A stretch of 38,874 bases of DNA from a virus. The notes below the pieces were generated by a model, which did not search any database, was not told the DNA's origin, and worked only from the letters and a program-made list of their open reading frames with translations. The stretch is taken from the IMG/VR virus record IMGVR_UViG_3300029381_000023; one strand, written 5' to 3'. The position numbers and the translations under genes were made by a program. Positions 235 to 38,874 of this stretch are shown here, piece by piece (position 1 is the stretch's first letter; each line of letters begins with the position of its first letter).

Positions 235-264
235 AAAAAAGAAAGCCATTTTTATTGACTTTCT
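235..264 (-). terminator. Intrinsic terminator closing the late/lysis operon
   Basis: Minus-strand RNA is AGAAAGUCA-AUAAAAA-UGGCUUUCU followed by UUUUU. The stem is 9 bp. Its single mismatch is C.A on the plus strand but G.U on the minus strand. Confidence 0.7.
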
Positions 265-273: not shown

Positions 274-468
274 TTATAAAATTTTCTTAATTTTTTTCTT
301 TAATTTTTTAATCATAACATCAAGAGTAGGTTCACTAACATTAAGTTCCATCGCCATTTTTGGCCTTGTATAGCCTTTTATTTTCATTTCAAGAAGTTTA
401 CAATATTCTTCATTAAGCATACATTCATCACATATTTTTAGATATTCAGACTTTGATAATTCAAACAT
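274..468 (-). CDS. Small sigma-70 region-4-like / LuxR-type HTH protein (64 aa), candidate phage transcription regulator
   Basis: The pattern ...LLEMKIKGYTRPKMAMELNVSEPTLDVMIKKLKKKI resembles a region-4 HTH. GAAGGA SD present. It is the last gene before the terminator. Confidence 0.55.
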   Translation of the reverse strand: MFELSKSEYLKICDECMLNEEYCKLLEMKIKGYTRPKMAMELNVSEPTLDVMIKKLKKKIKKIL

Positions 469-471: not shown

Positions 472-552
472 CTATTTCCTTCTTTTCTTTTGTTTAGATT
501 TTCTGTATTTTCTTGTTGTTGTAGTTTTTCGATATATTCTAATTCTTCCCAT
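472..552 (-). CDS. Micro-ORF, 26 aa, extremely basic (MGRIRIYRKTTTTRKYRKSKQKKRRK)
   Basis: Hand-translated. Its ATG overlaps the stop of the upstream gene as TAATG. It fills the 469-551 gap. No other support. Confidence 0.25.
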   Translation of the reverse strand: MGRIRIYRKTTTTRKYRKSKQKKRRK

Positions 553-821
553 TAATTATTATGAATATGACTATTTTCAATATTATCAACGTCATCAATA
601 TCAATTAATTCTTCTGTAGTGGTAGTTTCAGTGCCAATATCGTTAAGAATATACACTAAATACCCAATTGTTGCAAACCACATTCCCAGAATAACTAAAA
701 TAACTATAAATTGCCTTTTATTTTGGATTTTATAATCCTTTAATAAAGACATTGCTAAACTTTCTTCTTGAATTTCTTTTACTTCTTTTCCCAATTCCAA
801 CACTTCCTCTTTCAAACCCAT
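552..821 (-). CDS. Single-pass membrane protein (89 aa), lysis-module accessory
   Basis: Central TM segment FIVILVILGMWFATIGYLVYIL and an acidic C-terminal tail. Lies downstream of the endolysin. Confidence 0.6.
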   Translation of the reverse strand: MGLKEEVLELGKEVKEIQEESLAMSLLKDYKIQNKRQFIVILVILGMWFATIGYLVYILNDIGTETTTTEELIDIDDVDNIENSHIHNN

Positions 822-823: not shown

Positions 824-1084
824 TTATTCTCCTTTTTGATGATATTCTTTTATATGATGCTCCAAAGCAATTTCAATTCTTTCATCGATTTCTTTGTCAT
901 AATTATCTAACTTATTGTCGATTTTATCTAGTTTATCTAAAATTTGCTTAATTTGTGTGTCAATCATTCCCCATTTGTAACTATCATTTTGCGTGTCTTT
1001 ATTTGACTTGTCTTTTCTATTTAGTGCAAAACCACTAACAGAAATTACACAACTTATAATTGCAATTGCTAAAGTAATTTCCAT
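824..1084 (-). CDS. N-terminally anchored coiled-coil membrane protein (86 aa), lysis-module accessory
   Basis: TM segment ITLAIAIISCVISVSGFAL followed by heptad-like KQILDKLDKIDNKLDNYDKEIDERI. Its start overlaps the endolysin stop. Confidence 0.6.
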   Translation of the reverse strand: MEITLAIAIISCVISVSGFALNRKDKSNKDTQNDSYKWGMIDTQIKQILDKLDKIDNKLDNYDKEIDERIEIALEHHIKEYHQKGE

Positions 1085-3270: not shown

Positions 3271-3271
3271 A

Positions 3272-26866: not shown

Positions 26867-26884
26867 TATCTATCAGTCCTTTCT

Positions 26885-27190: not shown

Positions 27191-27205
27191 TCTCTATCAA
27201 CCTTT

Positions 27206-27442: not shown

Positions 27443-27445
27443 ATT

Positions 27446-27670: not shown

Positions 27671-27673
27671 ATT

Positions 27674-27958
27674 TTAATCATTCTCCTTTATTTTATAACA
27701 AATATTATCACTTTCTCCTGTGGTGTAATTAAAGTGTTTAAAGTGTAGTTCATCTTTACAAAATATAAATTCACTTAAATAGGTATCTTGTAATTGAAGG
27801 TTTATCATTTCTAATAACCTTCCACCATCTATTAATACTTCTTGTTCAAAATTATCTTTAACAAAAATGTTATTATATATTGTTTCATTTTCTTCACTTA
27901 ATCTTGAACTATGATTTATTATTAACAATTTATATTTTGAATAAATATTTATATTCAT
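27674..27958 (-). CDS. Hypothetical early protein (94 aa)
   Basis: Coding-strand ORF, tightly packed. Confidence 0.55.
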   Translation of the reverse strand: MNINIYSKYKLLIINHSSRLSEENETIYNNIFVKDNFEQEVLIDGGRLLEMINLQLQDTYLSEFIFCKDELHFKHFNYTTGESDNICYKIKEND

Positions 27959-27960
27959 TA

Positions 27961-28536
27961 CTATTTCTCCTTTAAGTTTTTAATTTCATCTATTAGTTCG
28001 TTAATTTTAATAGCAAACGCTTTGTCCATGTTTCTTGCAGTCCATTCTCCATTTGGAAATCCTAATGTTTTTTCTCTAATGGTTATTTTTTCTATCTTCT
28101 TTGGCTCTTCAATTATTTCTTTACTTTCAAAGTCAATTATTTGGTCAATAGCATTTTTACATTCTTCTATTATTTCTTCAGTAGTCCATTTTTTGCCGTA
28201 AGTCTTAATACTTTCAGGCATATATTCTTCATAACCACAATAATCGCCACAATGTGCATAATCCCAACCTATAAACCAATTTTCACTTTTAACTCCCATT
28301 AATTCGTTATCACTATATGTTAAGCCACCATTTACATCTATATCGCAACCAATTTTATAAATTTCATCATAGCTCTTTCTATATAATTTGTTTCCTTTAG
28401 GTATTTCAATATATGCAGTTGGATATGTTCCTAAATTCAAAACATAATAGTTATAATTTTTATATTTATCTTTACATAAAAGTTCTGTTTTTCTTTCTTT
28501 CCCATATTCCATTTCTTTAATTTTCATTCTTAACAT
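27961..28536 (-). CDS. Hypothetical protein (191 aa) with a WFIGWDYAHCGDY motif
   Basis: Coding-strand ORF. The motif looks conserved but I cannot name the family. Confidence 0.6.
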   Translation of the reverse strand: MLRMKIKEMEYGKERKTELLCKDKYKNYNYYVLNLGTYPTAYIEIPKGNKLYRKSYDEIYKIGCDIDVNGGLTYSDNELMGVKSENWFIGWDYAHCGDYCGYEEYMPESIKTYGKKWTTEEIIEECKNAIDQIIDFESKEIIEEPKKIEKITIREKTLGFPNGEWTARNMDKAFAIKINELIDEIKNLKEK

Positions 28537-28783
28537 CTCCTTTTGCTTTTTGTATTATAACTTCAATATCATGTATTTTTCCTATATCACAAATACTATT
28601 TTCTATTGAAATGCCATTGCATATCTTTTCTATATCATTTAATGATTGTTCTAAATTTTGATTTTGTTTTAACATTTCTTCAATATCACTGTTTAAATCA
28701 TGTTCAATGCCATTCTCATCTTTAAAATCATATTGTGAACTATAACCATCCAAATAATATTTTAATCTTTCTTTATAATTCAT
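28517..28783 (-). CDS. Hypothetical protein (88 aa)
   Basis: Coding-strand ORF overlapping its neighbours. Confidence 0.55.
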   Translation of the reverse strand: MNYKERLKYYLDGYSSQYDFKDENGIEHDLNSDIEEMLKQNQNLEQSLNDIEKICNGISIENSICDIGKIHDIEVIIQKAKGDVKNEN

Positions 28784-28968
28784 TATTTGTCATCTCCTTT
28801 TTCCTTTATTTTATGTTCTATTTCTTTAATAAAGAATATTATTCCGTCAATTGCATAAGATACATCAGTTTTAATTCTTTTGCCTTTGAAATCACAAATA
28901 TAGCTATCCCCCATTTCTCTATTTTCTAAGTTTTTATATAATTCATATATTTCTTCTAGTGTAATCAT
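28783..28968 (-). CDS. Hypothetical protein (61 aa)
   Basis: Coding-strand ORF. AAAGGAAAAGA SD. Confidence 0.5.
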   Translation of the reverse strand: MITLEEIYELYKNLENREMGDSYICDFKGKRIKTDVSYAIDGIIFFIKEIEHKIKEKGDDK

Positions 28969-29105
28969 TTTCTTTTCCTTTCTTATAATATTGTTTTATT
29001 ACCCATTTATTTCAATTTTAAGCGACTTTTTATTATTTGCGACTAATTATATTATTTTAATATTTTTGTTTGCCTATCGCCATTATTTTTATGTTTTATG
29101 GCATA

Positions 29106-29246
29106 TTACAAATTGCTTCTACTTGTAATAAATAATTTTTTGCTATGTTCTAATTTTATTACCCTTTTTCTAAAAAAATAATAACTGCCAAATTTTTCTT
29201 CCCAACTTTTGCCTGTTTCTAAGTCCGTAATGTTTATGTAATACAT
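29106..29246 (-). CDS. Micro-ORF, 46 aa (MYYINITDLETGKSWEEKFGSYYFFRKRVIKLEHSKKLFITSRSNL)
   Basis: Hand-translated. Its ATG overlaps the helicase stop as TAATG. Confidence 0.3.
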   Translation of the reverse strand: MYYINITDLETGKSWEEKFGSYYFFRKRVIKLEHSKKLFITSRSNL

Positions 29247-30457
29247 TATTTGCCCTCACTTTCATAAAATCTTTGTTTTGGTTTATCAAAAACAACAGGT
29301 ATTCTAACATTTCTTTTGCCACCACGACATTTTGGAACTAACAAACCAATTTCTTTAACATCAACATTATTTTGTTTGTTTTCATCATGTATAAGAATAA
29401 TTGTGTCTGCTGTTTGTTCTATTTCCCCACTGTCTTTTAAATCTTGCATTGTTGGTGTATCACTACCATTTCTATTTATTTGTGCAATTAAGAATATTGT
29501 GCAATCATAGTCTTTAGTAATGTTGTTTAACTCCCTAACTGCTTCTCCAATTCTTTCTCTATCATTTTGCCCTTGTTTGCCAACTATGTAACCTGTGTAG
29601 TCAATAAAAACTATTAAATGTTCTTCTCTTTGTTCTTTGATAATTTTGTTTTTAATTGATTGCACTGTCTTGCTCCCGTTTATAACTTCATATTTAAAAT
29701 TATAAACTCTGTTTGCTGCTTCCATTATTTTTTCGTCTTGAAATTCTGATTGTGGCTTATTAATATCAGAAATTGGAATATTACTTTCAATTCCAAGCAT
29801 TCTTTCATAAACTTCTTCTTCTGTCATTTCCATATTGAAATAAATACTTTTATATTTTTTTGCCAAGTCGCAAAATAAATTTAATGCAAGTGCTGATTTT
29901 CCTTCGCTCGGTCTAGCCCCAATAACATTTATTGTTCTTTTTTTGATTCTTAGCCTTTCATTTAAAAATCTAAATCTGTCAAATTGTATTATCTTTTCAC
30001 GATTTCTAATCATATAGATCATTTCTTCTGGAGTTTTTTTGTTATTTTGTTTTATAACCATAACTTCATTTGAAATTTTATTTATGTTTTCAACTAATTC
30101 ATCAATTTCAATTTGGTTTTTCGCATATTTATTAATTTCCGCTTTAATTAAGTCATCTTTATGTTGGTCGATTAATTTTTGTTGGTATTCATAAAAACTT
30201 GTTGGGGATATTATTAAATCCATTGTTTCTATGTAATAGTCCATAAATCTATCTCTGGCTTTAAAGTCTTTGATGTAGTTCAATAAAATTGTAATATCTA
30301 ATTTTTTCTCAGTTTCCCAAACTTTTTTTAATAATAATATAACTTGTTTATTATAACTATTTTTAAAACAACTCATATCAATAAACAATTCGTTTATAAG
30401 TTCGGGTTTATAAAATATGCAACCAATTATATTTAATTCTAAATCATATTGTTTCAT
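29246..30457 (-). CDS. Replicative DNA helicase, DnaB-type (403 aa)
   Basis: Walker A GARPSEGKSALALN, Walker B LIVFIDYTGY, RecA-like C-terminal domain pattern. Confidence 0.9.
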   Translation of the reverse strand: MKQYDLELNIIGCIFYKPELINELFIDMSCFKNSYNKQVILLLKKVWETEKKLDITILLNYIKDFKARDRFMDYYIETMDLIISPTSFYEYQQKLIDQHKDDLIKAEINKYAKNQIEIDELVENINKISNEVMVIKQNNKKTPEEMIYMIRNREKIIQFDRFRFLNERLRIKKRTINVIGARPSEGKSALALNLFCDLAKKYKSIYFNMEMTEEEVYERMLGIESNIPISDINKPQSEFQDEKIMEAANRVYNFKYEVINGSKTVQSIKNKIIKEQREEHLIVFIDYTGYIVGKQGQNDRERIGEAVRELNNITKDYDCTIFLIAQINRNGSDTPTMQDLKDSGEIEQTADTIILIHDENKQNNVDVKEIGLLVPKCRGGKRNVRIPVVFDKPKQRFYESEGK

Positions 30458-31100
30458 AAATTACTCCTTCTTTTTTATCATTGTTTTCTTTTCTTGGTGG
30501 ATAAAATTCACGATAACCATTTTTTAAAGAAGTTTTTATAATTTGTTCTTGTTCTTTTACATTATAGGGTTTTAAAAACAAAATCAATTCATCTATAATA
30601 TTTTGATTATTAGGTATTTTTATACTTTTTCTATAATTAAAATATTCTAATAATAAATTAATTATATTATCTAATTTATTATTTTTAATATAAGAATTAA
30701 TAAAAGAAATATTATTAATATTTATATTTTCATTTTCATTTTCCATATGTTTAACATATGAAAAACATATGTTTTCAAAAGTTATCTTATTTTTTCTATT
30801 TTCACTTCTCGATTTTGAATATTTTTTTCTTTTATCAATTTCCTTTTGAAGCCTTATATTATAGTACTTTCCGTCATTATCTTTTGTAAATTTTTCAAAG
30901 ATATCTTTATCATATCTTTTACATATGTTTAACATATCTTTTTCTGATAAATGTCCTTTTTGATGTTGTATACACAATAATTTTATGTATTTTCCTAATT
31001 GAACATCACTCATAAACATAGTTCCTGTAAGAAAATCGCTAGAATAAAATAAGAATGCTGGGTCTTTGTTTTCATATTCTTCTTTTGCTTCATTTTCCAT
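30444..31100 (-). CDS. Replication-associated protein, DUF1376 (YdaU)-like N-terminus (218 aa; start trimmed)
   Basis: PAFLFYSSDFLTGTMFMSDVQLGKYIKLLCIQHQKGHL fits the DUF1376 pattern. ATG 31100 has AAGGAG 7 nt upstream. The track start at 31139 overlaps a better micro-ORF. Confidence 0.65.
   Translation of the reverse strand: MENEAKEEYENKDPAFLFYSSDFLTGTMFMSDVQLGKYIKLLCIQHQKGHLSEKDMLNICKRYDKDIFEKFTKDNDGKYYNIRLQKEIDKRKKYSKSRSENRKNKITFENICFSYVKHMENENENININNISFINSYIKNNKLDNIINLLLEYFNYRKSIKIPNNQNIIDELILFLKPYNVKEQEQIIKTSLKNGYREFYPPRKENNDKKEGVIYETI
30744..30776. repeat. Iteron array A: three 11-bp-phased CATATG repeats inside the replication gene
   Basis: catatgtttaa / catatgaaaaa / catatgttttc start at 30744, 30755 and 30766. 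Confidence 0.9.
30900..30943. repeat. Iteron array B: four tandem 11-mers (g/c)atat(c/g)ttt..
   Basis: gatatctttat / catatctttta / catatgtttaa / catatcttttt start at 30900, 30911, 30922 and 30933. Confidence 0.9.
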
Positions 31101-31101
31101 T

Positions 31102-31272
31102 TTAAAACTCCTTTTCTTCAAATTGCAAAAATTCAACATGATAATTGCTTATTGCTATAATATAATTAAGAAATTTAATTGCTTCCTTATAATTATCTTC
31201 AAAATGAAACACCAATTCATTTTGAGTTAAACTTTCTTCAATATCATCTTTAATTACCACATTATAATACAT
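31102..31272 (-). CDS. Small ORF, 56 aa (MYYNVVIKDDIEESLTQNELVFHFEDNYKEAIKFLNYIIAISNYHVEFLQFEEKEF)
   Basis: Hand-translated. GGAGAA SD 5 nt upstream. It abuts the AbrB-like stop and ends 1 nt before ATG 31100. Confidence 0.45.
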   Translation of the reverse strand: MYYNVVIKDDIEESLTQNELVFHFEDNYKEAIKFLNYIIAISNYHVEFLQFEEKEF

Positions 31273-31274
31273 TT

Positions 31275-31436
31275 TTATTCTCCTTTCTTTGTTTTAATTG
31301 GTATTAATTTGATATAGTCTTTGTAAATTTCCATATAAAATTTATTACCCCATTTATCGATAATTTGTTGTGGTATTCTCATTTTGTTTGTTGTTGTTTC
31401 TGCATTTTTTTGCAATCTTATAATTGGTTGTTCCAT
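31275..31436 (-). CDS. AbrB/SpoVT-like DNA-binding protein (53 aa; start trimmed)
   Basis: MRIPQQIIDKWGNKFYMEIYKDYIKLIPIK is a swapped-hairpin-type pattern. ATG 31436 follows AGGAGGTG. The track's N-terminal extension covers a promoter. Confidence 0.6.
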   Translation of the reverse strand: MEQPIIRLQKNAETTTNKMRIPQQIIDKWGNKFYMEIYKDYIKLIPIKTKKGE

Positions 31437-31466
31437 TTTTACACCTCCTATCTTTAACCTATTTAA

Positions 31467-31495
31467 ATTATAGCACCCATTTAAAACCAAGTCAA
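31467..31495 (-). promoter_or_regulatory. Near-consensus promoter TTGACT-N17-TATAAT (spacer ends TGC, an extended -10 TGn) for the AbrB-like/replication operon
   Basis: -35 at 31490-31495. -10 at 31467-31472. Exact 17-nt spacer. Confidence 0.75.
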
Positions 31496-31506
31496 TACCC
31501 AAAAAC

Positions 31507-31537
31507 AACAAAAAAAGAAGAATTTTACATCTTCTTT
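31507..31537 (-). terminator. Intrinsic terminator after the SSB-like gene
   Basis: aaagaaga-attttaca-tcttcttt (31514-31537), an 8-bp stem with a U-rich tract on the minus strand. Confidence 0.5.
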
Positions 31538-31548
31538 ATTTTTCTAAA

Positions 31549-32139
31549 TTAGAACGGAAGCATATCGTTAGTAACTTCAATTTCATCACTTGAATTGCTA
31601 TTTCCGTTGCTTTTTATATAATCTTCATATTCGGTATAAGATCCATCAAGCATTTTTACTTGAGTAGGTTCTTTAATATCTTTCATTTTATCAAGGCTTC
31701 TAAATTTATTTAATTTAGCACTTATTCCGATTTTTCCATCTTGCGTTTGGTATTGTTCCCATTGATATACACAACATATTTTTTTGCCACGAAGTTTTGT
31801 TTCATCCCAATCCCAAGTATAACCTGGATTTGAATTTTCAATGCTTGTTATAAATCCCTTTAGATAACTTAAATTTTGTTCTTCAAGTGATAAATATTTT
31901 GTAGAATTGTTATTCCAGCGTCTATCTACATTAGTGTTTTTATCATACATTTCTTTGAAATAACCTTTGTATTCTCCACTTGCAATATCAACCATTACTT
32001 TTAAAGTGGTTTTTCCACTATCTTTGTTAAAATTTTCGCAAGCATTTATTATAACACATTCATAAACTCCTGCTGGAAATGGTGTAAAATCATCCATTCC
32101 CTTTGCTTCAATTTCGCTCCAATTTTCAATTTTTTTCAT
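31549..32139 (-). CDS. ssDNA-binding-type protein (DUF669-like) with an SSB-style acidic C-terminal tip
   Basis: Ends ...SSDEIEVTNDMLPF (compare the bacterial SSB tip DDDIPF). Neighbours a Sak4-like recombinase gene. Confidence 0.6.
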   Translation of the reverse strand: MKKIENWSEIEAKGMDDFTPFPAGVYECVIINACENFNKDSGKTTLKVMVDIASGEYKGYFKEMYDKNTNVDRRWNNNSTKYLSLEEQNLSYLKGFITSIENSNPGYTWDWDETKLRGKKICCVYQWEQYQTQDGKIGISAKLNKFRSLDKMKDIKEPTQVKMLDGSYTEYEDYIKSNGNSNSSDEIEVTNDMLPF

Positions 32140-32816
32140 TATTTTCCTTCCTCAACTTTCTTTCCTTCTTTATAATATTGCCAGCTATAACCGCCAGCTC
32201 TTTTAGTATTGCCTAAGCAACATCTACTTATGTTTTTTATTCCTGTTAGCGTTTCTGCTTCAACTATTGAATTATATATTTTATTTTCTTCTACACACAA
32301 AACTTTTTTTCTTTTGGGAGATTTTTTCCCCTTTTTGGCAATGCTCATTTTTTGACATGAAATTTTATCCATTTTTTTGCCTTTGTTCCATGGCTTTTTT
32401 CCAAACATAGGATTTTTTTCTCCTAAATTTTTATTTCTCAATATTTCTTTTATTTCATTACTTACTTTATGAGTTTTGCCAGTAGAAGCATTTCTCAGTT
32501 TTTCTTTAGTTAAATTGCTAACACTATTTGCATATCCTCCATTTGCAATATTATAACCATAATTGGGATTATTGCTTTTCAAAAAGGATATTAAGCTTTG
32601 TTCTTTATTTTCTGCTTCCTCTTTAGTTAAATTGGTTAATACTATAATATGTTTTATATTATTCCAACCATATTTTTCTATTGCTCTATTAAATAAAATA
32701 CAGCCTTTGTAATTTTTGCCGTTCCCCCATCTTCTTTCTGGAATATTTTTAGTTATTCCAACATAATTTTTATCATTAGGGCAAACGTGAACATAAAGAG
32801 TATAGCCTTTTTCCAA
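32139..32816 (-). CDS. GIY-YIG homing endonuclease with NUMOD3-type repeats and a C-terminal DNA-binding domain
   Basis: YTLYVHVCPNDKNYVGITKNIPERRW (GIY..YIG), KEEAENKEQ...YNIANGG, repeated HKVSNEIKE/GKKPWNKGKK modules. TTG start 6 nt after AGGAGGTG. Confidence 0.9.
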   Translation of the reverse strand: MEKGYTLYVHVCPNDKNYVGITKNIPERRWGNGKNYKGCILFNRAIEKYGWNNIKHIIVLTNLTKEEAENKEQSLISFLKSNNPNYGYNIANGGYANSVSNLTKEKLRNASTGKTHKVSNEIKEILRNKNLGEKNPMFGKKPWNKGKKMDKISCQKMSIAKKGKKSPKRKKVLCVEENKIYNSIVEAETLTGIKNISRCCLGNTKRAGGYSWQYYKEGKKVEEGK

Positions 32817-32848
32817 TACTCACACCTCCTTTTGCCATTTATTTAAGC

Positions 32849-32926
32849 AAAAAGGACTTATACAAGCACTGGTATTTATGTCGAGTAAGCACCAATGCTT
32901 ATATAAATCCTTTTTACTTACTCGAC
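32849..32926 (-). promoter_or_regulatory. Leader with two interleaved hairpins (a 25-bp terminator-like stem and a 10-bp 5' stem) upstream of the GIY-YIG gene
   Basis: 32849-32873 pairs with 32891-32915: 22 Watson-Crick pairs plus 3 positions that are C.A on the plus strand but G.U on the minus strand. 32880-32889 pairs with 32917-32926. A U5 run follows the long stem on the minus strand. Confidence 0.6.
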
Positions 32927-32932
32927 AATATA

Positions 32933-32961
32933 ATTATATCATATTTTTAATATTCTTTCAA
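32933..32961 (-). promoter_or_regulatory. Promoter TTGAAA-N17-TATAAT (TGATATAAT) dedicated to the GIY-YIG gene
   Basis: -10 at 32933-32938. -35 at 32956-32961, inside the 3' end of the upstream gene. Confidence 0.65.
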
Positions 32962-34362
32962 TACTTTAATAACTTCATATAAATCATTATCAATATATTG
33001 TTCATCATCATAACTTCCCATAGGTGTTCTTGCTGTGCTGTTTGGAGATTTAGTTTCAAAAACATATTTTCCATCATTATTTTTAGCAATTAAAACTGTA
33101 TCAAAGTATTTTTCAAGACCAATTTTATTTAATTTTTTTCCATTTGTTAATAATCTTGTAAATCCCTCATCATCAGTTTGCGTATGCCCTATAAAGATAA
33201 CTGTTATATCATCTCTTAAATCTGGAACAATATTTATTAAATTGAATATACAACTTGCTAAATCAATCCATTTATCAAAGTTTTTGTCTTTGCTTCTTCT
33301 CATTTCATCAGCAATCATTATTGAATTGATAGTATCAATAACTATATAGTGAATATCTTCTCTTTTTTCACTAATTCCTTGCATACATTTTGCAATTAAT
33401 TCTCCATCATTGGTTTTAAAATAATTTTTATTTTCTTCATTAAAATCATTTTTCCAACCTTTATAATTTAATCCCTTTTTATCACAATCTATGTAATATA
33501 ATTCATTTTTGGGTATATTTCTAAGTGATACTGTTTTACCACTTGCTGGTTCACCCATAACCAAAATCATTTTAGCCATTTTATTAGTCCTCCTTAATTC
33601 TAATATTTTTTTAACTTCTTTCATTAAATATGGTGTTTCAATAAGTTCATATTTTTCAATATTTTCACTCATATAAACAATCATTGTTTTATAAATTTTA
33701 ATGTTAGTATATTTTTCAATAAGATATTTATAAATACTTAATTGTAAATAGTAGTGATTTAAACTATCATCTTTTATGTTTTGCAATGGAATAAGCATTT
33801 TTTTAGTGTATCTTCGATTTTTTTCATCATCATTGTATCCTTTGAGAATACTATTTGTTTTATAATCTATAAGCCAAACATTGCCATCTTTGTCCAAGAA
33901 CAAATGGTCTATTGCCGAACAAATATCATATTCTTCGCTTCCTACTAATTGTTCATCTTGAATATGTATAAATTTATCTTTAAAATCTCTATAAAAATTA
34001 TTTGCTTGTCCTTGTATTTTAACGCATGCTGAATAATATTTATGGTCATTATTAAAATCTAACCATTCACACTTTTCCCCACTCCAGATGCCTTGTGCAA
34101 AATTATGGCAATAACTACCTTTGGCACATGCAAATTTGTTTTTATATTCCCATTCTTCAAGAACTTCACTAACACTTTTATTATCTCTTATTGCCACTTT
34201 TTCAGCAATTGCTTGTTGGTCAAATGGATTACTATATTCTTCAATTAATCTCGTAACACTAATTCCAACTCTTTTACCATTACATTCATAATGATGATCT
34301 TCTTCAAAAAATTTAAACTTATCAAATACCCTTAATTCTTGTTTAACTTCTTCAAGCGTCAT
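32947..34362 (-). CDS. Fusion protein: N-terminal PD-(D/E)XK (RecB/Cas4-like) nuclease and C-terminal Sak4-like AAA_24 ATPase
   Basis: AIDHLFLDKDGNVWLIDYKTN...YYLQLSIYKY (D..DxK..QxxxY), then ILVMGEPASGKT Walker A and IVIDTINS Walker B. Confidence 0.8.
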   Translation of the reverse strand: MTLEEVKQELRVFDKFKFFEEDHHYECNGKRVGISVTRLIEEYSNPFDQQAIAEKVAIRDNKSVSEVLEEWEYKNKFACAKGSYCHNFAQGIWSGEKCEWLDFNNDHKYYSACVKIQGQANNFYRDFKDKFIHIQDEQLVGSEEYDICSAIDHLFLDKDGNVWLIDYKTNSILKGYNDDEKNRRYTKKMLIPLQNIKDDSLNHYYLQLSIYKYLIEKYTNIKIYKTMIVYMSENIEKYELIETPYLMKEVKKILELRRTNKMAKMILVMGEPASGKTVSLRNIPKNELYYIDCDKKGLNYKGWKNDFNEENKNYFKTNDGELIAKCMQGISEKREDIHYIVIDTINSIMIADEMRRSKDKNFDKWIDLASCIFNLINIVPDLRDDITVIFIGHTQTDDEGFTRLLTNGKKLNKIGLEKYFDTVLIAKNNDGKYVFETKSPNSTARTPMGSYDDEQYIDNDLYEVIKVLKEY

Positions 34363-34363
34363 C

Positions 34364-34486
34364 TTACTTTTTCCTTTCAGTTAAAATCATTCTTATGTAA
34401 GCACTCAATGAAAGTCCTTTTGCTTTTGCTTCTTCTTCAAGTTGCTTTTTTAAACTTTCATCAGTTTTAACATGTATTAATATCAT
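34364..34486 (-). CDS. Ribbon-helix-helix (CopG/MetJ-like) micro-protein, 40 aa
   Basis: Hand-translated: MILIHVKTDESLKKQLEEEAKAKGLSLSAYIRMILTERKK. AAAGGAGGAAAA SD. Stop lies 1 nt before the next ATG. Confidence 0.6.
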   Translation of the reverse strand: MILIHVKTDESLKKQLEEEAKAKGLSLSAYIRMILTERKK

Positions 34487-34516
34487 TTTTCCTCCTTTCA
34501 ATTATATATAATTATG

Positions 34517-34744
34517 CTACTTTTTACTATAATATTTTTTCTTTTTGTTTATAATATATTTCATATATGCTTTTTGGTCTAAAATTTTTTTACAACAATT
34601 GCAACACCCAGTTCTTTCTAAAAACACTTTCTTATTTCTGTACCCACATTCTGGACATTGAACAAATTGTGCTAAAAATTCTTCTCTATCGATTTTCTTT
34701 TCTTTTTTTGTTGGTATATAATCCTTAAAATCCCATTTATCCAT
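34517..34744 (-). CDS. Zinc-ribbon protein (75 aa)
   Basis: CPECGYRNKK...CCNCCKK. Confidence 0.6.
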   Translation of the reverse strand: MDKWDFKDYIPTKKEKKIDREEFLAQFVQCPECGYRNKKVFLERTGCCNCCKKILDQKAYMKYIINKKKKYYSKK

Positions 34745-34761
34745 AATGTTTCAAGCCTTTT

Positions 34762-35001
34762 TTAAAATCTATCATCATAAGCATCGCCAGTGTAATCACT
34801 CATTGGTCGACTTACATAATTATCTTCAACATCTTGTTTAAAATCATCATATTCTTCTTGCAAAACATCATATTCGCAAACTAAGTCATCCACCATACAA
34901 ATTAAATCTTCAATAGTAACTAATCCCCCTTTAGATTTATAATCAAATCCAGTTATTTTTTTAACTTTCTCAATAAGTTTTTCATTAATTTCTAAATACA
35001 T
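34762..35001 (-). CDS. Acidic hypothetical protein (79 aa)
   Basis: Coding-strand ORF, Asp/Glu/Tyr-rich C-terminus. Confidence 0.55.
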   Translation of the reverse strand: MYLEINEKLIEKVKKITGFDYKSKGGLVTIEDLICMVDDLVCEYDVLQEEYDDFKQDVEDNYVSRPMSDYTGDAYDDRF

Positions 35002-35002
35002 T

Positions 35003-35257
35003 TTAATCCTCTCCTTTTATTATTTCTTTTAAATCTTTTATTTTGGCTCTAAGTTTTTTATTTTCTTTTTTTAGCCTATCATTTTCGGCTGTTTCACCTA
35101 ATTTTTTCATAAACTCTTTGTATAATTCATCTTTAATTGAGTTTTCTAAAGTTTCAACTTGATTTTCCAAAGTGTTTATTTTTTTGTTTAATTTAACAGT
35201 GTCAAATATTTTTATACTACCTCCAAATTCTTGAATAAATAACCATTTGACCAACAA
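35003..35257 (-). CDS. Coiled-coil hypothetical protein (84 aa; start uncertain)
   Basis: Heptad-like LENQVETLENSIKDELYKEF...LKKENKKLRAKIKDLKE. The 5' 41 nt overlap the upstream gene. Confidence 0.5.
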   Translation of the reverse strand: MLVKWLFIQEFGGSIKIFDTVKLNKKINTLENQVETLENSIKDELYKEFMKKLGETAENDRLKKENKKLRAKIKDLKEIIKGED

Positions 35258-35408
35258 TTAACCAAAACCAACTAATTATACTAACTGCTACATAAAAGTT
35301 GCTAGAACGGGCTAAAAAGCCCCAATAATCAAGTTTTATGTAAATAACCAAACTCAATATTAATAACAATATTGTCAAAACCACCTTAACCCATTTTCTT
35401 AATTTCAT
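35217..35408 (-). CDS. Small two-TM membrane protein (63 aa; start trimmed), first gene of the early operon
   Basis: MKLRKWVKVVLTILLLILSLVIYI... ATG 35408 lies 9 nt after AGGAGG. The track's GTG 35450 would lie in the promoter region. Confidence 0.55.
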   Translation of the reverse strand: MKLRKWVKVVLTILLLILSLVIYIKLDYWGFLARSSNFYVAVSIISWFWLIVGQMVIYSRIWR

Positions 35409-35440
35409 TTTTTTCATCCTCCTTTCGTATGTATGTATAT

Positions 35441-35469
35441 ATACTAACACTTTTTTGCTACATTGTCAA
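35441..35469 (-). promoter_or_regulatory. Early promoter TTGACA-N17-TAGTAT
   Basis: -35 at 35464-35469. -10 at 35441-35446. About 25 nt upstream of the SD of the first early gene. Confidence 0.55.
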
Positions 35470-35473
35470 TACC

Positions 35474-35520
35474 TTTTGTATACTCTTTTTATACTTTTTG
35501 TATATTTGCGCTTTTGCATA
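35474..35520. repeat. Operator-like direct repeats TTTTG(T/C)ATA x3 just upstream of the early -35
   Basis: ttttgtata at 35474 and 35496 (22 bp apart) and ttttgcata at 35512. Includes the inverted pair gtata/tatac. Confidence 0.5.
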
Positions 35521-35542
35521 AAAAAACAGACTTTTTAGTCTG
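35520..35542 (-). terminator. Intrinsic terminator
   Basis: Minus-strand RNA is CAGACU-AAAA-AGUCUG followed by UUUUUUU. Confidence 0.55.
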
Positions 35543-35625
35543 CCTAAAAACCCAAAAGATAAAAATGAAAAAAGCATTGCCTTTGAAAGGGGGCTGGGTT
35601 TTTAATGCTAGGGTGAAATCTAGCT
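35520..35625 (-). ncRNA. Candidate ~100-nt phage sRNA bounded by its own promoter and terminator
   Basis: Lies between promoter 35632-35660 and terminator 35520-35542. Internal pairings: AAAAACCCA/UGGGUUUUU, AGCAUU/AAUGCU, GCUAG/CUAGC. The only ORF lacks an SD. Confidence 0.4.
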
Positions 35626-35631
35626 AATAAT

Positions 35632-35660
35632 AATATATCACTTATAAATAAAATTGTCAA
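35632..35660 (-). promoter_or_regulatory. Promoter TTGACA-N17-TATATT (spacer ends TGA) immediately after the tRNA
   Basis: -35 at 35655-35660. -10 at 35632-35637. Exact 17-nt spacer. Confidence 0.65.
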
Positions 35661-35661
35661 T

Positions 35662-35736
35662 TGGACAAGGTGGTGGGATTTGAACCCACGTATACATTAT
35701 TTGCAGTAATGCTCCTAGCCACTTGGATACACCTTG
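35662..35736 (-). tRNA. tRNA-Cys: tRNA-Cys (anticodon GCA), CCA-encoded
   Basis: Folded by hand: acceptor CAAGGUG/CACCUUG, D arm UCCA-AGUGGCU-AGGA, anticodon arm CAUUA-CUGCAAA-UAAUG, variable loop UAUAC, T arm GUGGG-UUCAAAU-CCCAC, discriminator U73, 3' CCA. Confidence 0.9.
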
Positions 35737-35757
35737 ATAAAGAAGAAATTAATCTTC

Positions 35758-36114
35758 TTATTTAACAATCCAGCAATACTCGGCTTGTCTTTCGCGACAA
35801 TCGAAACTATCATAAATAACACCATATTTAGAACAAACAATATGCCCAGTCATTGTTATAAGAATAACATTGTCGTTGTATTTTGCTGATACTTCTCCGA
35901 CCGATAAATTATATGTGGGTACTCTTTCATATCGTTCGTCTAAAAAATCAAGTATAAAATCTCTATCGTCTAACATAGTTCCTTTTAACCTTGCTTTGTT
36001 GCTTAAATATTGGTATGTATCATCCCAACTATTGCCTGTTGCAAGGCTTATTGACCTTATTACACAATCGTTCTCGAATAAGCCTAAAGCATTGTTATTA
36101 TAAAATTTATACAT
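35758..36114 (-). CDS. Cassette protein P7 (118 aa): candidate papain/transglutaminase-fold Cys-His-Asp enzyme
   Basis: ENDCVIRSISLATG (Cys17), MTGHIVC (His91), VIYDSFD (Asp). TAATG junction with P6. The fold assignment is a guess from spacing. Confidence 0.6.
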   Translation of the reverse strand: MYKFYNNNALGLFENDCVIRSISLATGNSWDDTYQYLSNKARLKGTMLDDRDFILDFLDERYERVPTYNLSVGEVSAKYNDNVILITMTGHIVCSKYGVIYDSFDCRERQAEYCWIVK

Positions 36115-36650
36115 TACATTTCACTTATCTTACGTGCAGTTTTTCTAACCTTTTCGATTTTATCTTGGCTATCGGCTTCTTGCATTATTAAATAAGTAAA
36201 ATCTTCAAGGCTTTGTAACATTTTATCAAAAGATTTTTCTGTTTCTCTATCATTTCCATAAGTATCTCTACCCTCAGAATAATCACCGTAGTGTTCGCCC
36301 ATTTCTTCAATCATGTCATATCCGCGATAGCGACCTCTTCCAGTTCCAGGTACACCTCTTCTTCCGTATGAACCATCCATATATCTTCCACGGCTATCTC
36401 TTGAACGGCCACCATTATAACTATCGTCCATAAAATAATCTCTTCCTCTATACATACTTTCTTCCTCCTTTTCTTTCCAGTATTTTTCATTTTCAATATC
36501 TTTATGAATATCTATTAATTTGTATAAAAGTTCTACATTTGCAGTTTGCAAACCATTTTCGGTTATTTGTTTTATTATTCTTTCAACTTCAGATTTTGTT
36601 TTTATTAAAACATCTTCTTTAGTTTCTTCAATTTTGTTCTCTTCTTCCAT
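36114..36650 (-). CDS. Cassette protein P6 (178 aa): helical ends flanking an Arg/Gly/Tyr/Asp-rich disordered core
   Basis: YRGRDYFMDDSYNGGRSRDSRGRYMDGSYGRRGVPGTGRGRYRGYD. Strong GGAAGGAGG SD. Confidence 0.7.
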   Translation of the reverse strand: MEEENKIEETKEDVLIKTKSEVERIIKQITENGLQTANVELLYKLIDIHKDIENEKYWKEKEEESMYRGRDYFMDDSYNGGRSRDSRGRYMDGSYGRRGVPGTGRGRYRGYDMIEEMGEHYGDYSEGRDTYGNDRETEKSFDKMLQSLEDFTYLIMQEADSQDKIEKVRKTARKISEM

Positions 36651-36831
36651 CTGAAATGCCTCCTTCCTTTAATAATCGTATTATCTCCTCATATTGCTTA
36701 TCTTGTTTATTTAAATGATTTTCTAATTTTTCAATTTGTTTGTCATTCAAGTTTAAGTTTTCAACGCCAATAATAAAAGATAATATATTTATTAAATTGA
36801 ATAAATACTCATTATTGTTTTCAGTATTCAT
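36628..36831 (-). CDS. Cassette protein P5 (67 aa): hydrophobic N-terminal segment plus a charged helix
   Basis: LFNLINILSFIIGV then KQIEKLENHLNKQDKQYEEIIRLLKE. TAATG junction with P4 and a 23-nt overlap with P6. Confidence 0.6.
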   Translation of the reverse strand: MNTENNNEYLFNLINILSFIIGVENLNLNDKQIEKLENHLNKQDKQYEEIIRLLKEGGISDGRREQN

Positions 36832-37289
36832 TATGATCTTTTGCTAATTCTAAAGTTAGCATTTTGATATAAAGGTATTTGTGTAGCAGTTGGTGTTCCG
36901 GTTGCAGTTGTACCAGTTAAAACACTAGGTACTGATTGTACTGTTAAAGTGGCTTCACCTCTGCAACAAATTGGCACTGTTTTAGTAAATGCAACATTTA
37001 CATAATCACCAGCAGTTGCTATATCAGCGATAACAGTTGTTCCTGGCAATAGAACTCCGTCCATATATAAACCTAAAGCAACTTGTCCAGCGGTTGCACT
37101 TGTTACATTTGCGTTAAAAGTAACATCATAGTTTCCACCATTTAAAATCTTATAAAGTGGTGAACCTTGTGAATGTTGAAGAAAACCATAGCAATTAGCA
37201 CATCTTGTTCTTATACAATCCATAGAAAATGTTAAAGGGCTAGAATTTGAAGCAAGTAAAACTGGTGTTTCTTGATAACTTTGTATCAT
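36831..37289 (-). CDS. Cassette protein P4 (152 aa): C1q/TNF-like jelly-roll resembling the BclA C-terminal domain; 5 Cys
   Basis: YKILNGGNYDVTFNANVTSATAGQVALGLYMDGVLLPGTTVIADIATAGDYVNVAFTKTV...EATLTVQSV strand pattern. Thr-rich TGTTATGTPTATQ. Confidence 0.7.
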   Translation of the reverse strand: MIQSYQETPVLLASNSSPLTFSMDCIRTRCANCYGFLQHSQGSPLYKILNGGNYDVTFNANVTSATAGQVALGLYMDGVLLPGTTVIADIATAGDYVNVAFTKTVPICCRGEATLTVQSVPSVLTGTTATGTPTATQIPLYQNANFRISKRS

Positions 37290-37316
37290 AATATCATTCC
37301 TTTCTTATAAATTATT

Positions 37317-37345
37317 TAAAAAAGAGATAGGGCTTTCCTATCTCT
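37317..37345 (-). terminator. Strong intrinsic terminator in the middle of the cassette (between P3 and P4)
   Basis: agagatagg-gcttt-cctatctct, a 9-bp stem, followed on the minus strand by UUUUUU. Confidence 0.8.
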
Positions 37346-37390
37346 AAAAATAGTAAGCACTTGTAATCAAGTTCCTGTAATCAGGTCTTA

Positions 37391-38155
37391 CTAAAAATTT
37401 CCACATCCGCATCCGCTTGTTACTTGATAATTATAGCAGCAATTAGGGTTTGGCACTATGTAACTAGGGGATGGGCAAGGTTTTAATTCACTTAATAAAT
37501 AAGCATTTTGTGCTGATTGACTAGCAGACAATCTTAATGCGTTAATTTCATTTTGTTGAGCAGTAATTTGAGCATTTTTGTCCTCAATTCTATTAGCGAC
37601 TATTTCATCATGTAAAGCACGATAGTTAGCATTGACAGTATCAACTATATCTCTAGTATTCATATTCATTGTGTTTTGTAAAGCACAAGTATTAGTTGCT
37701 AGATTGTAGTTAACCCCTTGAATATCGCTTCTTAAATTACAACAACAACTTGCTAAATCACTTGATAAGTTATTAATAGCATTTCTAGTTTCATAACCAT
37801 TTGCCATAATTGAATTATTAACGCCAGCAAAACCATTTAATAGGCTTGTATTCATAGCATAGAAACCATCACATATTCCATTTTGAATATATCTTGATTG
37901 TGCTGTTAAATCATTGAAACCATCGCTTAGTTGTCTTTGAATTGTGGCAAAATCAGAAGCAAGTACATAATTATCGGTAGCACCTGAACCATTACCACCA
38001 CCAAAGCCATTACCATTTCTACCCCAGCCCATAAAGGCAAAGATTAAAAAAATAATAACCCACCAACTACCATTATCTCCAAAACCATCATTGTTTCCAT
38101 TTCTTCCAGATAATAGAGCAACATCAGAAGCAGTTAATCCACTTTCTCCTCTCAT
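37391..38155 (-). CDS. Cassette protein P3 (254 aa): Gly/Asn-rich, one TM, Asn-rich helical region with a CCC motif, coiled coil, Cys-rich C-terminus
   Basis: WWVIIFLIFAFMGWG TM flanked by GNNDGFGDNG and GNGFGGGNGSG. Also SCCCN, NAQITAQQNEINALRL, and the C-terminus KPCPSPSYIVPNPNCCYNYQVTSGCGCGNF. 10 Cys in total. Confidence 0.75.
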   Translation of the reverse strand: MRGESGLTASDVALLSGRNGNNDGFGDNGSWWVIIFLIFAFMGWGRNGNGFGGGNGSGATDNYVLASDFATIQRQLSDGFNDLTAQSRYIQNGICDGFYAMNTSLLNGFAGVNNSIMANGYETRNAINNLSSDLASCCCNLRSDIQGVNYNLATNTCALQNTMNMNTRDIVDTVNANYRALHDEIVANRIEDKNAQITAQQNEINALRLSASQSAQNAYLLSELKPCPSPSYIVPNPNCCYNYQVTSGCGCGNF

Positions 38156-38222
38156 ATAAATTCTCCTTTCTTTATATTTAAAATACTTGGGAATTGCAAA
38201 ATTATATTAAAAACCAAATATT

Positions 38223-38447
38223 TTATTTAAACATTTCTTTGAAATTATTAAATTCTTGGTCAAAATCTTTTCCTTGACTTTTCATATAATTTCTAGCAAA
38301 ATTTTCAACACCTTTTGTGTCGCCTTTGTTTGCCATATCAATTAAATTTTTAAATATGGGATTGTTATTTTGAGATAGCATTTTCATTGCCATATCTTTT
38401 GGATTACCAATTCCCATCATGCCTTTTATCATATTTAAAGGGTTCAT
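38223..38447 (-). CDS. Cassette protein P2 (74 aa): Met/Asn-rich helical protein
   Basis: MNPLNMIKGMMGIGNPKDMAMKMLSQNNNP... GGAGGA SD. 3-nt gap to P1. Confidence 0.65.
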   Translation of the reverse strand: MNPLNMIKGMMGIGNPKDMAMKMLSQNNNPIFKNLIDMANKGDTKGVENFARNYMKSQGKDFDQEFNNFKEMFK

Positions 38448-38450
38448 AAA

Positions 38451-38874
38451 TTAATCCTCCTTTTTAGTTTTTAATTTGTTTTTAATATCTTTTAACTCTT
38501 TTTTTAAATCTTCTAAATCGTCTTTTAAATCATCAATTTCACTAAAATCTAATTTTTCAAGTCTTTTGTCTATATCTTCAATGGTTGCAAATTTCATGTC
38601 TTCTTTTTGCATTTTAGGTTCATAAATAGTTATTTTGCTTGTTCCGTCTTGTTGTAACTGTTTTGTTACTATTGCACTACCATTAGCAAGTGGGAAGTAG
38701 CTTACAGAACCATCTAATGGTATATCAATAGCTTTTACTACTTCTAAACTATCAACTTGCTTTCCATATAGCATATTTTGTCTATTTAAAGCCATTTGTG
38801 GTGCATTTTGAGTTTGCATAGGCATTTCCATCGGCTGAGGTCTATTCATTTGTTGTGCACCATAATATTGGTTT
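38451..38874 (-). CDS. Cassette protein P1 (body; the N-terminus continues at 118-134 on the circle, 146 aa in total): Q/M/P/N/Y-rich N-terminus, small beta domain, charged coiled coil
   Basis: (MYNPYLNQYYGAQQ)MNRPQPMEMPMQTQNAPQM..., then VDSLEVVKAIDIPLDGSVSYFPLANGSAIVTKQLQQDGTSKITIYEP, then DDLKDDLEDLKKELKDIKNKLK. Confidence 0.7.
   Translation of the reverse strand, partial: NQYYGAQQMNRPQPMEMPMQTQNAPQMALNRQNMLYGKQVDSLEVVKAIDIPLDGSVSYFPLANGSAIVTKQLQQDGTSKITIYEPKMQKEDMKFATIEDIDKRLEKLDFSEIDDLKDDLEDLKKELKDIKNKLKTKKED
38758..38874. repeat. Window-terminal direct repeat, copy 2 (identical to 1-117)
   Basis: Same 117 nt as bases 1-117. Confidence 0.95.

Follow-up and report, generated by a model that had tools for sequence, protein, structure and literature searches.

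The IMG/VR virus record IMGVR_UViG_3300029381_000023, a stretch of 38,874 nt that was analysed over its full length and is referred to here as the window, carries on its minus strand a gene, P3 (37391..38155), for a Cys-rich protein with a predicted membrane anchor and a long helical rod. The P3 family is already catalogued (PHROG 16490) and uncharacterised, and P3 is placed here for the first time in a defined unit, namely a syntenic late cassette (P1 to P7) that has a regulator-like gene, a tRNA-Cys dedicated to it and, internally, a conserved terminator; as a unit this cassette fits no described system, yet it could collapse into a known functional class. We tentatively favour, at somewhat below even probability, a reading in which P3 is an abundant late membrane-anchored protein that forms the backbone of a Cys-dependent assembly, with its rod probably on the cytoplasmic side. 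Its role would most likely lie in a late membrane-level step tied to envelope breakdown or release.

P3 is a real, conserved gene, far beyond chance. Its ATG-initiated open reading frame (ORF; 254 amino acids, aa, plus stop) is preceded by a Shine-Dalgarno sequence, AAGGAG (38163..38168, minus strand), which was read directly 7 nt 5' of the ATG. The translation carries GRNGNNDGFGDNG, WWVIIFLIFAFMGWG, RNGNGFGGGNGSG, NAQITAQQNEINALRLSASQSAQ and KPCPSPSYIVPNPNCCYNYQVTSGCGCGNF together with the motifs GICDGFYAMNT and SCCCN, and all the motifs, the ORF boundaries and the ten Cys residues quoted in an earlier note on this DNA were found in it. The Cys residues occupy positions 95, 137-139, 157, 227, 239, 240, 249 and 251, while Asn accounts for 36 and Gly for 26 of the 254 residues. 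That the genome otherwise uses Cys sparingly, as the earlier note had it, holds insofar as P3 (3.9% Cys) exceeds the genome mean of 1.62% by a factor of 2.4, although P3 ranks only 7th among the 63 ORFs.

The family to which P3 belongs is one of the large unannotated protein families in gut viromes. P3 matched phrog_16490 of PHROGs v4 ("unknown function") with E=7.5e-49 and 167.9 bits, residues 5-252 aligning with profile positions 5-276 of 286. At least 7,753 of the first 8,000 candidates scored were homologous at E<=1e-3, and 1,705 representatives of clusters at 50% identity matched P3 (775 at E<=1e-10), with the same architecture repeated in the cluster representatives, of which 150 were inspected. 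In the phage collection, carriers were human, lemur and rodent faecal phages, and isolated phages with a family member comprised six Clostridium perfringens phages, Butyrivibrio phage Ceridwen and Bacteroides phage C3_41T2LP; with carriers in culture, the role of the module is open to direct experiment. The Clostridium phages CPD1, XP41-N3 and vB_CpeS-17DYC are among the isolated carriers. Homologues also occur in many crAss-like phages, where they are labelled "spike protein/glycoprotein" or "outer capsid protein/viral fiber", and in two viruses assigned to Methanomassiliicoccales, whose homologues GenBank annotators had labelled with PHROG 16490 as well. The family thus reaches from Firmicutes to Bacteroidota (through crAss-like phages) and methanogenic archaea; no phage accessory gene is known to cross deeper host boundaries. 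When a collection of species-representative genomes was scanned with a profile built from a 13-sequence alignment, all 46 matches were gut metagenome-assembled contigs, mostly phage-sized. Relatives of the form "GLCDGFYA...CCC...coiled coil...P-rich", which the earlier note placed in Firmicutes genomes, do therefore exist, and the family consensus contains "NGLCDGFYA", but they are phage proteins rather than Firmicutes chromosomal ones, and extend to crAss-like phages, other Bacteroides phages and archaeal viruses.

Sequence and profile searches with P3 returned no significant match in Pfam, NCBIfam, PADLOC or the PDB, and a Foldseek search of its model against the PDB returned 0 matches because the model is one long helix. 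Literature searches, full-text for the PHROG identifier, found no paper on the identifier and no functional or proteomic data for it, for the isolated carrier phages or for the crAss "spike protein" annotations. No characterised family was matched and the ORF is a conserved gene, so that the earlier description of P3 stands in this respect.

An AlphaFold2 (AF2) model of the P3 monomer, built with an alignment of 102 diverse sequences (mean predicted local distance difference test, pLDDT, 74.5), consists of helices at residues 9-16 and 32-41, disordered Gly-rich linkers at 19-26 and 42-69, a helix from 69 to 224, and a disordered tail. In minus-strand coordinates, the protein begins with an acidic N-terminal tail (aa 1-30; 38066..38155) in which the conserved short helix LTASDVALLSG precedes a Gly/Asn-rich stretch, followed by the transmembrane helix WWVIIFLIFAFMGW with Trp at either end (aa 31-44; 38024..38065) and by a Gly/Asn-rich disordered linker (aa 45-68; 37952..38023; pLDDT <50 for residues 42-69). 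The single unbroken alpha-helix that comes next (aa 69-224; 37484..37951; pLDDT >90 at residues 140-220) would form a coiled-coil rod of approximately 23 nm (~155 residues at 1.5 Å per residue), and holds a near-invariant Cys-Cys-Cys triplet (aa 137-139; 37739..37747). The protein ends in the Pro/Cys-rich tail KPCPSPSYIVPNPNCCYNYQVTSGCGCGNF (aa 225-254; 37394..37483), modelled with low pLDDT. Family alignments and model alike bear out the single hydrophobic helix, the long helical region, and the CCC and C-terminal Cys motifs that had been read from the sequence.

The rod had also been called heptad-like, which the family average contradicts: hydrophobicity along the rod peaks at a period of 3.6-3.67 residues, with almost no power at 3.5, and the rod is therefore of hendecad rather than heptad type. 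A period of this kind, many core-compatible Asn residues, and a predicted single straight helix of ~155 residues are shared with the stalks of trimeric autotransporters and with tetrabrachion. Unlike these, P3 has neither a beta-barrel anchor nor head domains and is anchored by an N-terminal transmembrane helix.

Across the 102 diverse sequences, near-invariant positions comprise the Gly and Trp residues round the hydrophobic segment, the CCC triplet (>=90% conserved here, and invariant in 13 sequences), S212/Q216, three tail prolines and C249/C251; P228, P230, P237, C249 and C251 are each at least 90% conserved. Entropy over 120 close relatives is lowest for the N-tail (0.03) and the hydrophobic segment (0.03-0.04 across the two), and the linker 45-68 varies most. 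In the homologues from crAss-like phages and archaeal viruses, the N-terminal helix, the hydrophobic segment with its Gly-rich flanks and the CCC (sometimes present twice) are retained; those from archaeal viruses keep the rod and have no Pro/Cys tail.

The hydrophobic segment (consensus GAWWIIILFLFAFxGWG) gave the Kyte-Doolittle maximum of the protein in 119 of the 150 representatives, and Trp at both ends is common in membrane-spanning helices. The GAWWIIILFLF-type anchor is unchanged across phages whose major capsid proteins are 25-47% identical, and in crAss-like phages as well. Being the same regardless of capsid type, tail type and host phylum, the anchor most likely targets the lipid bilayer rather than a virion part such as a particular capsid, or a wall component. 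Several other identities were rejected. The spacing of hydrophobic residues at the P3 N-terminus does not fit the -4/-7/-12 rule of a double-glycine leader and, on reading, the helix end has no GG; a type IV pilin-like signal is contradicted by a leader that is acidic and 30 aa long and by a hydrophobic segment of only ~14 aa. Typical holins have fewer than 150 aa and carry a strongly charged, basic C-terminus behind their last transmembrane helix. P3 has 254 aa, the 210 residues after its transmembrane helix are net negative (2 K, 11 R, 14 D, 6 E), and it ends in Cys and Gly; moreover, it matched no holin profile (Pfam, and in PHROG unknown function only), and the holin of the window is a separate gene (1887-2177).

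Window positions 1-117 and 38758-38874 form a perfect terminal direct repeat of 117 nt. The window therefore represents an entire phage genome, circular or terminally redundant, of 38,757 bp and, with its ends joined, the P-gene cluster is contiguous with the three genes that follow the endolysin. All of these lie on the minus strand. The cluster consists of P1 (38451..38874, which crosses the terminal repeat and truly starts at window position 134; 146 aa), the first gene of the P1-P3 unit; P2 (38223..38447; 74 aa), always found between P1 and P3; P3; P4 (36831..37289; 152 aa, 5 Cys), downstream of the terminator; P5 (36628..36831; 67 aa), present in a subset of cassettes; P6 (36114..36650; 178 aa; phrog_28802, unknown function), which is syntenic; and P7 (35758..36114; 118 aa). 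The three genes after the endolysin encode s824 (824..1084; 86 aa; phrog_1863, unknown function), which overlaps the endolysin stop codon by 1 nt and accompanies the cassette in other phages, s552 (552..821; 89 aa), and a small helix-turn-helix (HTH) protein resembling sigma-70 region 4 or LuxR (274..468; GerE E=1.1e-3, sigma70-ECF E=2.7e-3), whose gene lies 5' of P1 in many loci. When the window proteins were mapped by BLAST and hidden Markov models (HMMs) onto 49 related loci, order and strand were near-constant (P1, P2, P3, P4 or an alternative, P5 where present, P6, P7), with the s824, s552 and small HTH genes often upstream of the cluster. Cassette synteny round P3 held in ~46 loci, and P1 was syntenic in 36.

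P3 is followed by an intrinsic terminator (37317..37345, minus strand; AGAGATAGG-AAAGC-CCTATCTCT plus T6) with a 9-bp stem at 37345-37323 (-12.6 kcal/mol). The hairpin and T-run are present in 43 of 50 related loci and, across the 26 distinct versions aligned, compensatory changes affect 7 of the 8 stem pairs, which points to a conserved terminator or attenuator dividing P1-P3 from P4-P7. This lends weight to the earlier suggestion that P3 is made in excess over P4-P7. The companion claim that this is the strongest terminator in the window is right in part: it is the best canonical site in 20000-38874 and strongly conserved, but a hairpin at 9608-9576 (minus strand; 15 pairs) is more stable at -19.2 kcal/mol. 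The latter, the most stable terminator-like hairpin of the window, follows the putative tail-tube gene and parallels the one after P3. A further terminator-like hairpin (240..264, minus strand; -8.8 kcal/mol) lies between the HTH gene and P1.

The sole tRNA of the genome, a tRNA-Cys (GCA; 35662..35736, minus strand), lies 22 nt after P7. A tRNA-Cys was also found downstream of P7 in 23 of the 41 related loci with enough flank (spacing 13-851 nt, and at most 100 nt in 15), at a 24th locus close to the end of a contig, and in another four close relatives; these loci are related by descent and so do not count as independent events. Across the loci L004-L058, the P7-linked tRNA-Cys was almost always the only tRNA present. 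It thus appears to be part of the Cys-rich cassette, and its retention there speaks for a central functional role of the cysteines and of high expression. A tRNA linked to one amino acid of a single cassette is a rare and direct genomic sign that both matter.

The orientation of P3 in the membrane was judged from charge. Over 119 representatives, the N-tail averages 3.1 D/E vs 0.6 K/R per protein, while the 20 residues C-terminal to the transmembrane helix have hardly any net charge, and an Arg often stands directly after the helix. Read from the sequence, s824 opens with a transmembrane helix, after which come the basic stretch NRKDKSNK and a coiled coil; in s552, an N-terminal coiled coil and the basic stretch KIQNKRQ precede the transmembrane helix, and an acidic tail follows it. 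By the positive-inside rule, both coiled coils would therefore be cytoplasmic, and together with the acidic P3 N-tail they favour a cytoplasmic rod, weakly suggesting an N-out/C-in topology for P3. The "ectodomain" of the earlier note is accordingly doubtful. Resemblance of s824 and s552 to lysis proteins of the BhlA or XhlA families is one of architecture only, with no Pfam match even at E<=5. A comparable arrangement is found in p16.7 of the Bacillus phage phi29, an early protein of ~130 aa that organises a viral process at the membrane and has a membrane anchor, a coiled coil, a C-terminal DNA-binding domain and no Cys motifs. P3 would likewise combine a transmembrane helix at its N-terminus, oligomerisation through a coiled coil and a functional tip in the cytoplasm. 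Unlike p16.7, P3 is late, twice as long, acidic and Cys/Pro-tipped, with no detectable homology.

Taken together, the mechanism we propose would begin with P3 held in the cytoplasmic membrane of the infected cell by its Trp-bordered helix and flexibly tethered by the Gly/Asn linkers. The hendecad rods, ~23 nm long, would form parallel homo-oligomers, and the Cys layers (the CCC, and the CxC of the tail) may lock the oligomer or bind metal, and may also couple it to the Cys-rich beta-proteins encoded downstream. With N-out/C-in topology, the rod would meet P1, P2, P4-P7 and the coiled coils of s824 and s552 at the cytoplasmic face. P1-P3 would be made in structural amounts and P4-P7 at lower levels through read-through, and a papain-like P7 could process or cross-link some cassette protein.

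Several observations weigh against this proposal. Profile, structure and literature searches found neither a characterised homologue nor an experimental datum for any family member. The structure model is that of a monomer, and the topology is argued from charge bias alone, the nearly neutral stretch after the helix leaving room for N-in/C-out. The partner P4, which is C1q/TNF-like, and the Cys-rich beta-proteins are of a kind typical of extracellular or virion structures, and a virion component would likewise be in line with the insertion of the cassette among head genes in many phages. P3 tail subtypes show no co-variation with P4 vs its alternative, leaving direct tail-P4 contact unsupported; the papain-like assignment of P7 is weak in the PDB search described below; and HMMs of the cassette families detect P3 alone in crAss-like and archaeal viruses.

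The placement of the cassette varies. In the window and its closest relatives it lies 3' of the lysis genes, in two loci (L006 and L007) it sits between the tail fibre and the holin, and in 11 loci, Dulem virus 35 (L001) among them, it lies within the head-gene region, after a MuF-like minor head protein and/or directly 5' of the scaffold or major capsid gene. This varied placement and the late-operon surroundings point to an accessory, mobile, late-operon module. Position between the minor head protein and the scaffold or capsid genes is also what would be expected if P3 were the stalk of a head or neck fibre, with a trimeric P4 as its knob, the two joined via Cys-rich segments and the hydrophobic N-terminus serving as an assembly tether or being removed by P7. 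This virion-fibre or decoration reading, which we regard as possible but unlikely, gains from the BclA_C-like character of P4, from the high expression implied by terminator and tRNA-Cys, from the gut-wide, host-independent spread of the family, from the label "viral fiber" given by crAss annotators, and from the cassette proteins having no signal peptide, as is usual for virion proteins (none was visible in P1, P2 or P4-P7 on reading their sequences). However, the anchor is a canonical Trp-bordered transmembrane helix that is kept whatever the capsid or tail type, which argues against capsid-specific attachment, and the cassette holds two further small membrane proteins. A 3:3 stalk-knob complex is also hard to square with the unequal amounts of P3 and P4 that the terminator between them implies, and P4 is replaced in 13 loci without change of P3 tail type. 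Furthermore, no fibre homologue was found in Foldseek, PDB sequence or profile searches, and the tail fibre of the window is a different gene (2236-3306).

In other carriers the cassette lies close to lysis genes. P3 adjoins holin and endolysin in the window, in L006, L007, L019 and L038, and in CPD1, Ceridwen and cr116_1; in crAss-like phages it adjoins genes annotated as lysis regulator, sigma-like protein and endolysin, with capsid genes downstream, and one neighbour there bears the annotation LysB/FtsL-like. Inspected by eye, the genes beside P3 in crAss-like phages encode a beta-rich protein containing Cys, a protein of beta-plus-coiled-coil type, and proteins rich in Arg, Tyr and Asp, which resemble P4, P1 and P6; two of the neighbours had no significant PDB match. 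Proximity to lysis genes is in keeping with the preferred release-linked role for P3, and also with a spanin- or fusogen-type lysis accessory, in which P3 would be N-in/C-out with its rod across the periplasm or wall and, after holin and endolysin action, its hydrophobic and Gly-rich segments and its Pro/Cys tip would destabilise or fuse envelope layers. Lambda Rz/Rz1 and P2 LysB share with P3 an i-spanin-like architecture (a membrane helix at the N-terminus and then a long coiled coil), Cys residues and, in the o-spanin Rz1, a Pro-rich C-terminal element that the Pro/Cys tail of P3 recalls; they are likewise expressed late and often beside holin and endolysin, and the ~23 nm rod of P3 comes near the width of the periplasm.

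Nevertheless, we consider such a lysis accessory rather unlikely. P3 has no sequence or profile similarity to these proteins, and its acidic N-tail disfavours N-in and predicts the opposite topology. Its carriers infect monoderm hosts (C. perfringens, Butyrivibrio), with relatives that have a LysM endolysin, and include viruses of wall-less archaea; in contrast to Rz/Rz1, it also stands within a cassette of 7-10 genes with a tRNA-Cys. No lipoprotein partner was seen on direct reading, in which no systematic scan was made: a single ORF is nested in P3 (37927-38040; 37 aa) and, lacking Cys, it lacks a lipobox, and P2 and P4 have neither signal peptide nor lipobox. The cassette is distant from the lysis genes in many carriers and, being accessory, is missing from many related phages; in the phage collection, no P3-family match came from any PhiCrAss001 record.

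The best PDB profile matches of P3, none of them significant, were to influenza HA2 (residues 6-113, E=0.016), which would suit a fusogen. Like HA2 and the HR1 region of coronavirus S2, P3 has a hydrophobic, Gly-rich segment and, after it, a long coiled coil rich in Asn and Gln. The resemblance is one of composition and explains why crAss records bear the label "spike protein/glycoprotein". Unlike class I fusion subunits, P3 has no second heptad repeat, C-terminal anchor or receptor-binding subunit, its period is hendecad, and its matches are non-significant (E 0.016-0.2). We rejected P3 as a class I fusion protein, since the best HA2 match (18 bits) stood amid many similar sub-threshold matches driven by composition. 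Were P3 either a lysis accessory or a fibre, thousands of genes would gain an annotation.

The remaining cassette proteins bear on what a Cys-dependent assembly might contain. In P1, a Q/Y/P/M-rich N-terminus leads into a conserved, beta-rich core, and a coiled coil forms the C-terminus; P1 had no Pfam or PDB match, and a profile search gave unnamed proteins only. P6 has helical ends and a central Arg/Gly/Tyr-rich low-complexity region. Pfam, NCBIfam and PADLOC scans of P3 and its neighbours yielded, BclA_C for P4 aside, coiled-coil noise at most. Library searches gave no informative match for P1, P2, P5 or P6, and P4, P6 and P7 had no significant PDB match by sequence or profile. The match of the window P4 to BclA_C (C1q/TNF-like; E=2.8e-4, 21.2 bits) is below the Pfam cut-off of 38; in the P4 family, 17 of 27 members match BclA_C and no other family (best E=5e-7), and the 152-aa P4 has no GXX collagen-like repeat region. 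In 13 loci, P4 is swapped for an unrelated protein of ~140 aa with 5-11 Cys and no Pfam match.

P7 has an invariant Asp16-Cys17, His91 and Asp102 and possibly a minimal papain-like fold. In its AF2 model, built with database homologues (pLDDT 93), Cys17 lies at the N-terminus of helix 17-26. Fold matches in the PDB were weak (best E=0.45; template-modelling score, TM, <=0.46), many of them papain-like, including Tae4 (E=1.0), deubiquitinases and the double-glycine peptidase 6mpz (TMq 0.46), and P7 had no Pfam match. Among the predicted viral structures of BFVD, 17 uncharacterised phage proteins matched at E<1e-3. The P7 fold (phrog_3754), a small alpha+beta domain with Cys, His and Asp, occurs in uncharacterised proteins of many unrelated phages, among them Pseudomonas ITTPL, Enterococcus vipetofem, Sphingomonas Kharn, PhiJL001 (Gp45) and Sinorhizobium phiM9. 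Judging by these predicted structures, P7 represents a widespread, unannotated, enzyme-like phage family in its own right.

A Cys-rich cassette with a BclA_C-like protein and a candidate papain-like enzyme also recalls spore-surface assemblies of Firmicutes (the exosporium nap of BclA/ExsFA, the endospore appendages Ena, and the layers of CotY/ExsY/CdeC), with which it shares the BclA_C-like P4 and Cys-rich, Gly/Tyr/Gln-rich proteins without signal peptides; where spore coats hold the transglutaminase Tgl, the cassette holds the predicted papain-like fold of P7. Unlike these systems, the cassette has no collagen repeats or exosporium leader, P3 has no sequence match among them, and the genes are phage-borne, including in phages of non-sporulating Bacteroides and of archaea. 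We consider it quite unlikely, though worth stating, that the cassette builds an undescribed structure on a lipid membrane, a protein layer or array of spikes cross-linked through Cys and possibly by transglutaminase, comparable to a spore coat, an exosporium or a cornified envelope. P3 would then be the anchored rod, P4 or its alternative the caps, P1 and P6 a low-complexity matrix and P7 the cross-linking or processing enzyme, with the tRNA-Cys meeting translational demand. Such a layer could help progeny to survive in the gut by wrapping or packaging them, be it as membrane-coated or occluded virions or as hardened cell ghosts. It would also account for the occurrence of the cassette in siphoviruses, crAss-like phages and archaeal viruses alike, irrespective of the host envelope. 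A cross-linked membrane-associated structure of this kind, if true, would be a new class of phage-encoded assembly.

A bitopic membrane protein in an accessory, horizontally mobile cassette, with a short exposed N-tail as its most conserved part, might instead coat the membrane and block incoming phage DNA, or prevent adsorption of progeny to debris. We regard such superinfection exclusion (Sie) or membrane shielding as very improbable. The late-operon context speaks of structural-level expression, and no integrase was seen on reading the ORFs of those phages. A cassette of 7-10 genes with a tRNA is much larger than known Sie systems, and no hypervariable surface suggesting an arms race was apparent in the 120 close relatives. 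PADLOC gave no match for P3, P2, P4-P7, s824, s552 or the HTH protein, and coiled-coil noise only for P1.

The tail of P3 (CCYNYQVTSGCGCGNF) is Cys-rich and resembles the core of a ribosomally synthesized and post-translationally modified peptide, and P3 could conceivably be a Cys-rich peptide or bacteriocin precursor, with P7 as a C39-like leader peptidase and s824 as a holin-like exporter, in the manner of the uviA-uviB-bcn loci of C. perfringens. The weak fold matches of P7 to the double-glycine peptidase (6mpz, as above) and to a phage "Peptidase C39" protein (E=0.05) fit this, as do the small sigma-like HTH protein and a membrane protein of BhlA-like architecture in the cassette. We hold it to be extremely improbable, however: the cassette has no modification enzyme, no Gly-Gly site precedes the P3 tail, a conserved "leader" of 220 aa with a transmembrane helix and rod is unlike known precursors, s824 and s552 do not match the BhlA or XhlA Pfam families, and the archaeal homologues keep the rod without any tail.

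The P3 gene itself has other sequences within or beside it in some relatives. ORFs resembling homing endonucleases (HNH- or LAGLIDADG-looking) were found there in L034 (7447-7944), L048 (7266-7886), L005 (6762-7217) and L047 (8739-9815). In L034 and L048 the P3 frame is split, one ORF keeping only the C-terminal part, without the transmembrane segment. Such ORFs suggest introns, inteins or free-standing homing genes aimed at a conserved gene. Between P2 and P3, where the window has a gap of 67 nt, stretches of ~700 nt without a convincing ORF occur in L005 (5094-5841), L017 (3386-4081) and L022 (7276-7938); the idea that they are group I introns gained no support, as they had no Rfam match at the gathering threshold. 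In the crAss-like cr52_1 (L050, 2522-3547) and the archaeal vir215 (L053, 4152-5186), the P3 homologue lies just 3' of a pair resembling a diversity-generating retroelement, a reverse transcriptase with a tail-protein target, while in vir335 (L054, 3634-5496) a tail-protein gene (phrog_5302) stands alone upstream of it. This proximity may be a coincidence of genes clustering where the tail module ends.

The rest of the window is a tailed-phage genome (GC 28%) with every gene on the same strand. Its structural genes comprise the tail fibre noted above, with Collar and Gp10_C domains, the tape measure (6284-8575), the putative tail-tube gene (9623-10123), the major capsid protein (12000-12881), the scaffold (12904-13467), a MuF-like minor capsid protein (15514-17199), the portal (19327-20754) and the terminase (20754-22052); a DnaB gene lies at 29246-30457. 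The lysis genes are an Amidase_2 endolysin (1084-1884) and the holin at 1887-2177, which matches Phage_holin_5_2 and phrog_1299. In the relatives L055-L058, in which P3 is 95% identical, a GH25-LysM endolysin (324-1298) replaces the Amidase_2 enzyme and the cassette is kept, a clean swap of the lysin module with the fibre gene and the cassette on either side unaltered. By reading alone, two ORFs have the look of free-standing homing endonucleases, one in the structural region (14280-14786, minus strand) and one in the replication region (32139-32816, minus strand), HNH/NUMOD-like and GIY-YIG-like, respectively. One of the two DNA methyltransferase-like genes of the window (26054-26866, minus strand; positions 12079-12846 of the 14000-38874 query) shares 77% nucleotide identity over ~770 nt with methyltransferase genes of Staphylococcus epidermidis myoviruses (Twillingate, BE06 group) and ~80% over 210 nt with Flavobacterium phage genes, which suggests recent horizontal transfer.

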